Below are positions 42,646 through 45,600 of a stretch of 64,000 nucleotides of DNA, piece after piece. Location of the stretch: the NCBI GenBank assembly GCA_044892525.1, contig CM097886.1, positions 123,194,001 through 123,258,000 of the forward strand, read 5' to 3'. The DNA is from Schmidtea polychroa (Eukaryota). Both the position numbers and the translations under genes were made by a program. How positions within the stretch are numbered: position 1 is the first letter of the stretch; each line of letters opens with the position of its first letter. The notes beneath the pieces are model-generated. The model was not told where the DNA came from. It ran no database searches and was given only the letters and a program-made list of their open reading frames with translations.

Positions 42646-45600
42646 CTATCTAGTAAGAGTATCAATTCCACTTAGTTTTGGCATTGGTTCAAGTAAAAAT
42701 CTGGATTCTGGCTCCATTTTACTTTTTATTACACTTTTTCGAAAGCATTTATGTTCTGATTCGCCGTTGCTACTGTCATTGTTATGATCGTCGTTTTTGT
42801 CTTCCGACTGACATGTAGATTCCTCACTTCTCCGGCCATTTCTCAACTGCACTCTTACTCTTGACATTTCTTTAAATTGATGATCTGTAATAAAGAATCT
42901 GGCCAACAATGGAATACAGCCAATAATCAATTTCCATGACCATCCAGATATTGCATATATTCGATGTACTGATAATATCTGTGACACTATCACCTTTGCT
43001 GTTATCACGATTACGTAAATTCCGATTAAGCCTGCACATGCTTGTCCCAAAAACATGAACTTGCCCCAAATCTTTTCCATCGTTTTGTATGTAGCTCGTT
43101 TGAAATGATCAGGTGTTAGCAAATACTCGTAATTTACTTTTCCTTCCCCATTCGGTAATATCGTGTCAATCATTTCTGAAATTACTCGTTCTTTCTTAGA
43201 TGGAAACAACAAATTTCTTTGAGCTTCTTCAATATCCTCGCTTGGGTACAAACCCATTTGTGCCATTTTGTTTAATGATGTGAAATTTATCAGGTATTCT
43301 AGATTTGTTGATTCTAATTTGTCTGGAGTCTTGACTCCACGATAGTCTGGTAAAGCTATCCACGAATCTGTTGCTAATCGGTATAAGGGTGCTAATAATC
43401 TATTACATTGTAAAATCTTTGGTTTAGTTTGTTCATCAAGCAAAATTCTAGTTATCGGTTCCATAAATCGTATCTTTCCACCGAGGCTTACTGGTAATTC
43501 GTTTGTGCATTTTTCATATTTAGTAATTTTCACTGAGACTTCTTTGCATTTGTAACTGTATAACGCTTCTCCAAAAATTCTCGCAAACACGCCACTTTCT
43601 GATATTAGCATAGGTGCTACTAAATTTGGATTCGTAATTGCCATCGCCATTCGATTTCGAAGAATCTCTTTGTTCAGCTTGCAATCGTTTAGAATCATTT
43701 CTCTATATACATTTTCCCTGATGTTTTGACTAAAATGAAACAAATAATCAATTTTATTATTAAAATAATGAGTAAGTTTAATATCATCTCTGTGAATTTT
43801 AATTTTTGCCTCTTCCACAACATTTCTAGGCACATAAACGCCTTTATAATTTGTTACATACACCATTCGACCACATTTGTTGGTGATTTCCTTTTTTACA
43901 AATCGCATGCCATCTTCTGGTAATGTAGACATTAAAATTGTTCCCATTTGTTTTGTCCATATTGGAGTTGACTTAATAGTATCATTTGGTCTATATTTCG
44001 TATTAAAACTATCAGGTTTATCTCTAAACTGTTCTCCCACTAGCTCTTTAAAATTCATAGTTTTTAAGTGTGCTAAATTACACTTATTGGTTTCGACATT
44101 ATAGACAAGAATCGATTCCCCCGTTTGACAATTTGTTTGTTTCATATTACAGAATGGATGTGTTTGTAGCTTTCCCGTATCATCGTCGAAAGCTCCTTCA
44201 AATTCTCTTAACTCTGTTAGATATTCTTCCAGCACAACTGTGTGCTGAACAATTTTACCATTCATTTTGTATGGTTCACCTTCACAATCGCCATTTGCTT
44301 TCATAACTCCTTTTACAATTATTGTTTCTCGTATCCTATGATTCAATTTTGCCTTTAAACGAATTTCCGGACTTATTTTTAATTCTCCGGTTTGAAATGC
44401 TGTTAGACAGTTTTCTGGGAGTACCTCATTTGGCCTAGGTATCGCATGCATTTTTATAAGTGACGTATGACTCCATTTGCCACAATAGAATACAAATGTT
44501 GTATGTTTGACAATACACTCTCTTACTTGAGTTCTTCGTAAATCAGACTCTTGATACACGTAATATTTTATATCATTTTCTATTTTCAGTTTACTAGGAT
44601 ACGCACCTGGGCATTCCGACATATCAACTACTGAATAAATTTTTCCCATTTCAGTTTGGGAGCAATCATATGCAACTAATGATGATGTCTGCGTAATTAT
44701 TGCACAAAATGTAATCATCATAAACATTGCCCACGGAAATATCATAGTTTTTCTCAGTTCTGGTCGAACTCTCTCATTGACTCGTTTTTGAGATGGTTTC
44801 CTCTCTTGATTCTCGTTTTTCTTTTCTGTTAGAGACGAACACAGTGTTCTCCAACCACCATTTTCCTTTACCCAGTTCATTAGATATTCGTTTACTAGTC
44901 TGGCAGCGATGTCTATCAAGTTATCTAATTTATCTGATTTCGCGAACGCATACGTTCCAATTTCTAAAACAATATAAGTTAAAGCTGTTATTATCACATC
45001 CTTGTTAATTTCATTTTTTGTTAAATTTTCAATTACTGATCTCTCGCAAAATGTATCCTCTTCCCCAAATTTCTGTACTACTTCAGGCAGTCTATTTTTC
45101 ATTTCTTTAACTACTCCTTTTAGTTCATCCTTTACTTCTATCTCTATTTCGAACATCGGATATACTGCTTTAACGAGACGTTTCAAAACGTCCTTAGTTT
45201 CGTCTACATCTTGTTCTAACCTCACTAAATATTTCTTTATTTCATATAAAGTTCTAACTTTCTTCTTTTTGCTTTCACCATTTGTTTCGCTTTCTGGTAC
45301 AAGTGGCTCTCCTTGTACTGTTTCTGTAGACTGATCTTTTTTATCCAGCTCCTTCTGATCATCACCACTAACGATTTCCTCAATTTCTTGATTTCCATTT
45401 ACTTCTTCACCTTGTGCTTCTGTGTCAGACTCGCTGGACTTAATCTTGATTTCTAAACTTATTCCCTTTACTACAACTATATGGTTCACTAAATATCCCG
45501 CTCGTCCATCTCGGATCAAACATACATTTTCACCCAGCTCTTGTGGAATACATCCGCAATCATATAAATATTCATCATCATCAAGTTCTTCACCTTTGTA

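Follow-up and report, generated by a model that had tools for sequence, protein, structure and literature searches.

The Burro (GYPSM1) elements of planarians are giant LTR retrotransposons of Gypsy-like type (Jurka 2007; Grohme et al. 2018; in PMC6431247). A BCL2-like motif has been noted in Burro-2, Burro-3 and Burro-4 (Grohme et al. 2018, in PMC6431247), and an env that reads in frame between this motif and the protease (PR), and is a relative of the mononegavirus fusion proteins, is described in the same source (PMC6431247). BURRO1 and BURRO4 are reported to be under PIWI control (PMC8532177), and a RING and BIR module of Burro1 is reported to keep stem cells from undergoing apoptosis (Lee et al. 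2026, in PMC13465017). Bcl2 homologues have also been reported in adintoviruses (PMC8502044).

Here, we analyzed a 64,000-nucleotide stretch of Schmidtea polychroa DNA (the window), for which an earlier note had proposed the fusion of a Bcl-2-like domain to a viral glycoprotein. The arrangement gag-Bcl-2-env-PR-RT-IN is already in print for planarian Burro elements, with the BCL2-like motif followed by an in-frame env (PMC6431247). The discovery value is low because of this. To the published arrangement we add structural support for the whole Bcl-2 fold, evidence of selection, and the specific prediction that the domain does not work by canonical BH3 capture. Our literature search found no test of the Burro BCL2 domain, although Grohme et al. 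2018 and Lee et al. 2026, or their supplements, may contain one or name the family.

A truncated Burro-type retroelement and its relatives

All motifs quoted in the earlier note were found on the minus strand of the window, in an ORF of 1127 aa (42646..46029). The element to which they belong is a dead, 3'-truncated copy of a Burro-type, env-bearing Gypsy LTR retroelement (Table 1). Only the 5' part is present, with several breaks in the reading frame, and homology to other copies stops at 42105, which marks the end of the element; RT, RNase H, integrase and a second (3') LTR were not found within the window. The 18-mer just inside the LTR may resemble a tRNA-Trp primer-binding site. Contigs from sequencing runs presumed, by guess, to be RNA cover the region, which is no evidence of transcription.

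Table 1. Features of the retroelement copy in the window (amino acid numbers refer to the 1127-aa ORF).
Feature	Position	Strand	Basis and remarks
5' LTR	48548..49377	-	~830 bp, TG...CA; sequence inspection; ~75% match to both LTRs of another copy
Primer-binding-site-like 18-mer, just inside LTR	48526..48543	-	Sequence inspection
70-bp tandem repeats, 5' leader	48207..48556		Repeat family D2
gag: capsid, CCHC zinc knuckles, helical region, weak ubiquitin-like repeat	46023..47941	-	Pfam
Helical region and acidic linker, upstream of Bcl-2 domain	45259..46029	-	Second ubiquitin-like-looking repeat, by eye
Bcl-2-fold domain, ~aa 258-405	44815..45258	-	Pfam, profile, AlphaFold, structural matches
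Alpha2 helix DELKGVVKEM, aa 301-310	45100-45129	-	
BH1 region VIENLTKNEINKDVIITALTY, aa 332-352	44974-45036	-	
BH2 YLMNWVKENGGW, aa 382-393	44851-44886	-	
Hydrophobic signal/anchor segment, aa 427-450	44680..44751	-	Hydropathy peak 1.87; -3/-1 residues across copies
env: chuvirus/mononegavirus-type fusion glycoprotein ectodomain and transmembrane helix	42958..44679	-	PF24664
Aspartic protease	42105..42645	-	RVP E=5e-5 (Pfam)

Within gag, Pfam matches were obtained to Retrotrans_gag (E=2e-6), zf-CCHC (E=1.5e-11) and, weakly, ubiquitin (E=0.095). The gag frame is interrupted at three places: near 47810, at 47478-47480 and near 46030. Those near 47810 and 46030 fall within short runs of a single nucleotide and may be errors of sequencing; in either case the 1127-aa frame, called 'ORF2' in the earlier note, is no separate gene. 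Its start is a frameshift near 46030 that is shared by none of the 25 other copies that could be aligned over the junction (34 other loci were compared, of which 8 gave no alignment and one was a duplicate place; other indels lie close by in 2 of the 25). 'ORF2' arose by decay of a copy that is broken and truncated. We also considered a programmed frameshift between gag and 'ORF2' and ruled it out, as the 25 other copies do without the shift.

The helical and linker region (45259..46029) matched no Pfam family. The order of the next two parts is as the earlier note had it: a Bcl-2-like domain (Pfam Bcl-2, E=0.0014) with, directly downstream, an env that matches Monjiviricetes_fusion (PF24664) at E=2.1e-85 and has a transmembrane hydropathy peak at aa 997-1024. 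A signal-peptidase site is predicted after the hydrophobic segment, ahead of the env start. A stop at 42646-42648 separates the protease from env in the window copy.

At least 150 places in the 781-Mb genome match the Bcl-2 domain, at 84-100% identity (scores were computed for 150 of 1763 candidates); nearly all of them are on four very large contigs. Many of them lie inside one frame of 3437 aa, and single frames reach 3437 aa and more. The polyprotein runs gag-Bcl-2-env-PR-RT-RNase H-IN (Gypsy-type) in one frame, an order read from one copy in two separate stretches that cover knuckles, env, PR, RT, RNase H and integrase. The one copy measured is ~21.6 kb long, including a triplicated 2.6-kb unit, and its LTRs of ~0.87 kb are 97% identical to each other. 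After the polyprotein follows a separate ORF of 489 aa encoding an ISG20/ISG20L2-like DEDDh exonuclease (E=7.6e-11; L032:7609-9078, L035:4332-5798), which is present in the subfamily of the window copy too (87%). Past the integrase, the last ~420 aa of the L032 polyprotein contain a second signal-like segment and then a C-terminal transmembrane helix, with no Pfam match in the region between the two.

A more distant family (L066-L073, L075, L076, L078, L080 and L098), with a frame of ~3053 aa and a clearer BH1, has the same gag-Bcl-2-env-PR order, followed in L066 as far as PR; most of its copies score ~29 bits against Pfam Bcl-2 and a few 32-33. Homologue searches in the protein collection gave no match to the domain. 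The representative protein library yielded two. One of them, P0002, is an unnamed fragment of 82 aa and of this type, and was retained for the alignments; the other, P0001, is repetitive and was dropped as spurious.

Elsewhere in the window, we noted by eye, from the translations, a decayed hAT-like transposase (25615-27373, minus strand) and a small Gypsy-type pol remnant (30784-32723, minus strand).

Homology, fold and groove residues of the Bcl-2 domain

That this is a captured Bcl-2-fold domain, in identity and in fold, we regard as close to certain. The window copy itself matches Pfam Bcl-2 (PF00452) over model positions 5-100 with 19.6-20.2 bits, below the gathering cut-off of 31.4 bits. 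For more sensitive comparison we used a profile of 21 rows (natural domain copies from 7 lineages and the unnamed fragment, 20-85% identical), which contains no known cellular Bcl-2, but was gathered partly via the Pfam Bcl-2 search and the BH2 pattern and is therefore not blind to the hypothesis. Pfam Bcl-2 is matched at E<=0.05 by 19 of the 21 rows (best 2.8e-7). Sequence homology extends over BH1-BH2: searched against PDB sequences the profile reached E=3.7e-7, with Bcl-2 or Bcl-xL in all 60 rows listed, and hhalign against the other Bcl-2 genes of the genome gave a probability of 95.9 (E=5.9e-9). The single domain gave weak matches to PDB sequences with phmmer (best E=0.0085). Pfam matches to DegQ, Phage_lysozyme and DUF2417 were set aside as sub-threshold helical noise.

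With the 21-row alignment, AlphaFold predicted a six-helix bundle round a central alpha5-alpha6 hairpin (pLDDT 81.8, pTM 0.77); the model from the single sequence (pLDDT 46) was unusable. The Foldseek matches listed all belong to the Bcl-2 family (best E=3.5e-3, TM ~0.6), none of them at E<=0.001. In the structural ranking by VIA, rows 1-36 are all Bcl-2 folds (best Z 13.6; Bcl-xL with Z 13.5, rmsd 2.7 and 127 residues aligned) and the first unrelated row follows at Z 5.3. Helical bundles as such can reach Z near 13, a caveat that is answered by this gap to the unrelated rows and by the independent sequence evidence. The AlphaFold and Foldseek check proposed in the earlier note thus came out in favour of the Bcl-2 homology and fold that it claimed, and the GGW match is not isolated.

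The BH2 match reported there, YLMNWVKENGGW, is present, and its W...GGW is invariant in the alignment (21/21 rows). When the ORF was shuffled 20000 times, the pattern W[ILVMF]xxxGGW turned up in a single shuffle, which is indicative only, the pattern being post hoc. The proposed BH1/BH2 register, with NWGR aligned to NKDV, is borne out by the alignments and by the model, where the asparagine caps alpha5 and sets the next three residues to the W-G-R register. At these positions the canonical residues have largely gone: the glycine position holds D in 13 rows, E in 7 and N in one, arginine is found in a single row and tryptophan in none. The BH3 aspartate is likewise absent from all 20 rows that cover its position, in the register of the Pfam alignment. 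The 'BH3-like' segment DELKGVVKEM is thus a helix in the alpha2 position, but not one with the BH3 signature residue.

Mutation of the BH1 glycine abolishes the pro-survival activity of Bcl-2 and KSHV Bcl-2 and impairs that of vaccinia F1L, in which this glycine is the one retained NWGR-like residue and is needed (PMC2836074). The BH1 arginines, for partner binding, and the acidic residue of BH3 are also described as important (PMC9171138). As even F1L keeps the glycine (PMC2836074) and all 21 rows lack it, the suggestion that the loss of NWGR here resembles that in divergent viral Bcl-2 proteins is not supported. The loss of the BH1 glycine and of the BH3 aspartate argues against canonical BH3 trapping, an argument softened by two Bak-like host genes of the same genome (L048, L050) that are also without the BH1 glycine. 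A complex prediction of the domain with the BH3 segment of a Bak-like host gene scored 0.02 against a mark of 0.34, but carries no evidential weight, since the alignment was not used by the predictor. A Bak-like, multi-exon host gene was seen at L114:8813-9480, with Ala before the BH3 Asp and a BH1 without glycine.

In the domain tree, which is unrooted, has long branches and leaves out the exon-split Bak-like genes L048, L050 and L079, the 21 retroelement-type rows stand apart from the 9 host and DNA-element rows (support 90/92, not starred). The tree pointed to no particular host gene as the donor.

A second, unrelated Bcl-2-like gene lies in the window itself (40446-40972, minus strand), within Polinton-like remains (36408-41594). 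It has two exons and a short intron, is degraded in the window, and is followed immediately downstream by what is probably the major capsid gene (39230-40456; by eye, with no Pfam match), an adenovirus-type protease (E=6.5e-7) and a fragment of protein-primed PolB (E=8.8e-8); its sister copies L051-L056, L064 and L065 score above the Pfam Bcl-2 cut-off. The loci L058-L063 contain a multi-copy, intronless Bcl-2-like ORF of 152 aa beside a TBP-like-looking ORF (by eye), and have a neighbouring ORF resembling one beside the Polinton Bcl-2 gene; they are probably a third mobile carrier of Bcl-2. Seven near-identical, NWGR-bearing copies (L036-L042; G000:C4, ~89.9-90.8 Mb) form a cluster, which may be a tandem array of the host or may have been duplicated in the assembly.

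Selection, retention and membrane topology

In comparison with a sister subfamily of 85% identity, the dN/dS of the Bcl-2 domain is 0.17 (0.09-0.32), and it is 0.14-0.52 in the six of seven more distant pairs with measurable dS; a value of 1 lies outside the intervals both for the sister subfamily and for each of the 7 distant pairs. The same sister comparison gave 0.04 for the hydrophobic segment, 0.06 for env, 0.01 for the capsid and 0.10-0.19 for other gag-side regions (the helical region, aa 20-195, at 0.19). The acidic linker, at 0.45 (0.20-1.36), has an interval that overlaps that of the Bcl-2 domain. The domain evolves under purifying selection, but the constraint is nothing unusual: weaker than on env or capsid and no stronger than on other gag-side regions, whereas the hydrophobic segment is about as constrained as env.

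The domain is kept in 7 genomic lineages at 20-85% identity, with only 20-35% in the distant ones. No sampled lineage is without it, but the sampling was by the domain itself and losses would be invisible. Two separately derived lineages, on separate branches of the tree, retain the Bcl-2 domain and the anchor while lacking env and pol (L092/L088/L110/L106 and L104/L105). The first belongs to a non-autonomous family of 1308 aa (L112:1984-5910; also L113, L092, L088, L106 and L110), which has gag, Bcl-2 domain and hydrophobic segment in one open frame, and neither env, PR, most of RT, RNase H nor integrase; at its junction, 48 of 126 matches span the whole 200-aa query at >=87% identity. In L104/L105, ~20-30 env residues are followed by a jump to the post-integrase region. 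The anchor adjoins that region almost directly in both lineages, and the region itself is partly kept in both. Within the 1308-aa lineage, purifying selection on the domain was undetected (0.48, 0.73 and 1.08, with wide intervals); compared with the autonomous sister of this lineage, the domain has a dN/dS of 0.23-0.24.

All 19 copies compared have the hydrophobic segment, with the anatomy of a signal peptide, ahead of the env start and 42-70 aa downstream of BH2; 16 of them carry a small residue at -1. The other three, with Leu at -1, all come from the 1308-aa lineage; L104/L105 keep the small residue. These predictions agree with the proposal that the segment serves as signal peptide of the glycoprotein. 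The companion proposal, that signal peptidase releases the Bcl-2 domain, appears mistaken: such a cut would release env, whereas the domain, being joined to Gag on its other side, would stay attached.

Possible roles of the domain and comparison with known systems

The reading that we favor, and to which we give about an even chance of being right, is that of a membrane-tethered, non-canonical modulator of survival or stress. The polyprotein would be made at the ER, where the hydrophobic segment would direct env into the lumen and, following standard topology, signal peptidase would cut behind the segment. The Bcl-2 domain would then be left on the cytosolic face, with the segment as its tail anchor and still joined to Gag, until the element's own protease separates the two. 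The domain may promote survival of the producing cell. It would do so at the membrane, where a remodelled groove or a different surface, instead of the textbook NWGR-BH3 salt bridge, would bind host death or stress proteins. The anti-apoptotic RING and BIR module of Burro1 gives a precedent for this reading, which is further supported by the homology, the fold, the one-frame architecture, the selection and the retention of the domain in 7 lineages and after the loss of env and pol. It is weakened by the state of BH1 (Gly 0/21, Arg 1/21), the modest constraint, the undetectable selection within the 1308-aa lineage and the missing Foldseek match at E<=0.001.

A structural role is less probable, and on the whole we consider it unlikely: the Bcl-2 fold and anchor might tether Gag, in a matrix-like manner, to the membrane into which env is inserted, and so couple capsid assembly to the envelope. 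This would suit the fixed position of the domain, which in each of the 19 copies compared has the Gag side before it and the env signal after it, its synthesis one-to-one with Gag in a single frame, the loss of the canonical apoptotic residues, and an anchor constrained like env (dN/dS 0.04 vs 0.06). The hydrophobic segment alone could hold Gag, however, and the env-less lineages still keep the domain, though env could be borrowed in trans; the invariant BH2 W..GGW (21/21) fits retention of the fold under either model.

Poxvirus A46, A52 and B14 are Bcl-2 folds with non-apoptotic signalling roles that do not bind BH3 motifs. A comparable decoy, binding innate-immune or autophagy/ER-stress proteins, seems improbable here. 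It would account for the loss of the BH1 Gly/Arg and of the BH3 Asp, A52, N1L, A46 and B14 are among the fold matches (Z 5.9-7.5), and MATH/TRAF and ubiquitin-like domains are described nearby in published Burro elements (PMC6431247). Against this, the model is far closer to cellular and pro-survival viral Bcl-2 proteins (Z 11-13.6) than to these four, BH2 is intact, and no MATH domain was detected in the family of the window element.

A vestigial passenger, once a useful capture and now a stably folded spacer in a polyprotein that needs an open frame, is very improbable: identities of only 20-35% between distant lineages and dN/dS values up to 0.52 in distant pairs and ~1 within one env-less lineage would fit it, but 1 is excluded by the intervals for the sister subfamily and all 7 distant pairs, and no lineage sampled (by the domain, so that losses are invisible) is without the domain.

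More broadly, we suggest, tentatively and as a possibility rather than an expectation, that the captured Bcl-2 is no longer apoptotic in the usual sense, being either a membrane-tethered matrix substitute between Gag and env or a BH3-independent binder of stress proteins, and that it is valued enough for two independent lineages without env and pol to keep Gag, domain and anchor. Next to the IAP module by which Burro1 is reported to protect planarian stem cells, a high-copy relative with a Bcl-2 fold and no detectable BIR offers a direct test of whether such host-transposon mutualism is general, and as planarians allow RNAi, the question of function is testable.

Among known systems, Anakin-type retroelements have likewise captured a chuvirus-type (Chuviridae/Jingchuvirales) glycoprotein (PMC7642597, PMC10084718), but their hosts are arthropods, unlike that of the planarian element, and the term 'Bcl-2' does not occur in the text available from these sources (PMC7642597, PMC10084718). 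The viral mimics A179L, CNP058, BHRF1, KsBcl-2 and F1L also place a divergent Bcl-2 fold in a mobile element (A179L, Z 13.0); they are free-standing genes of DNA viruses, and F1L differs in its BH1 glycine (PMC2836074). With cellular Bcl-2, Bcl-xL and Bak (PF00452) the domain shares the fold (Z 13.3-13.6), an intact BH2, the BH1 register and a C-terminal hydrophobic segment. It differs from them in its score below the Pfam cut-off, the replaced W/G/R of BH1 and the missing BH3 aspartate, and in being embedded in a polyprotein, with an anchor that runs on into env.

Burro elements are larger (>30 kb, ORF of 4873-5140 aa) than the family of the window copy (~21.6 kb in the one copy measured, ORF of 3437 aa). 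They have MATH_TRAF, BIR and ankyrin domains, for which the polyprotein pieces and the 489-aa ORF gave no Pfam match at E<=0.01, and a dUTPase-like domain between PR and RT, for which the family gave none at this threshold either; for the ubiquitin/SUMO-like domain that Burro elements have before BCL2, the window copy gave a weak ubiquitin match (E=0.095). The separate ISG20-like exonuclease ORF after the polyprotein is a difference in the other direction. Because of the size and the BIR, MATH and ankyrin domains, the element, compared with Burro-2, Burro-3 and Burro-4 by their description, is filed as Burro-type and not as Burro proper. What it shares with them is the plan of one polyprotein, with Gag and CCHC, BCL2-like domain, env and PR-RT-RH-IN in this order, present in many copies.
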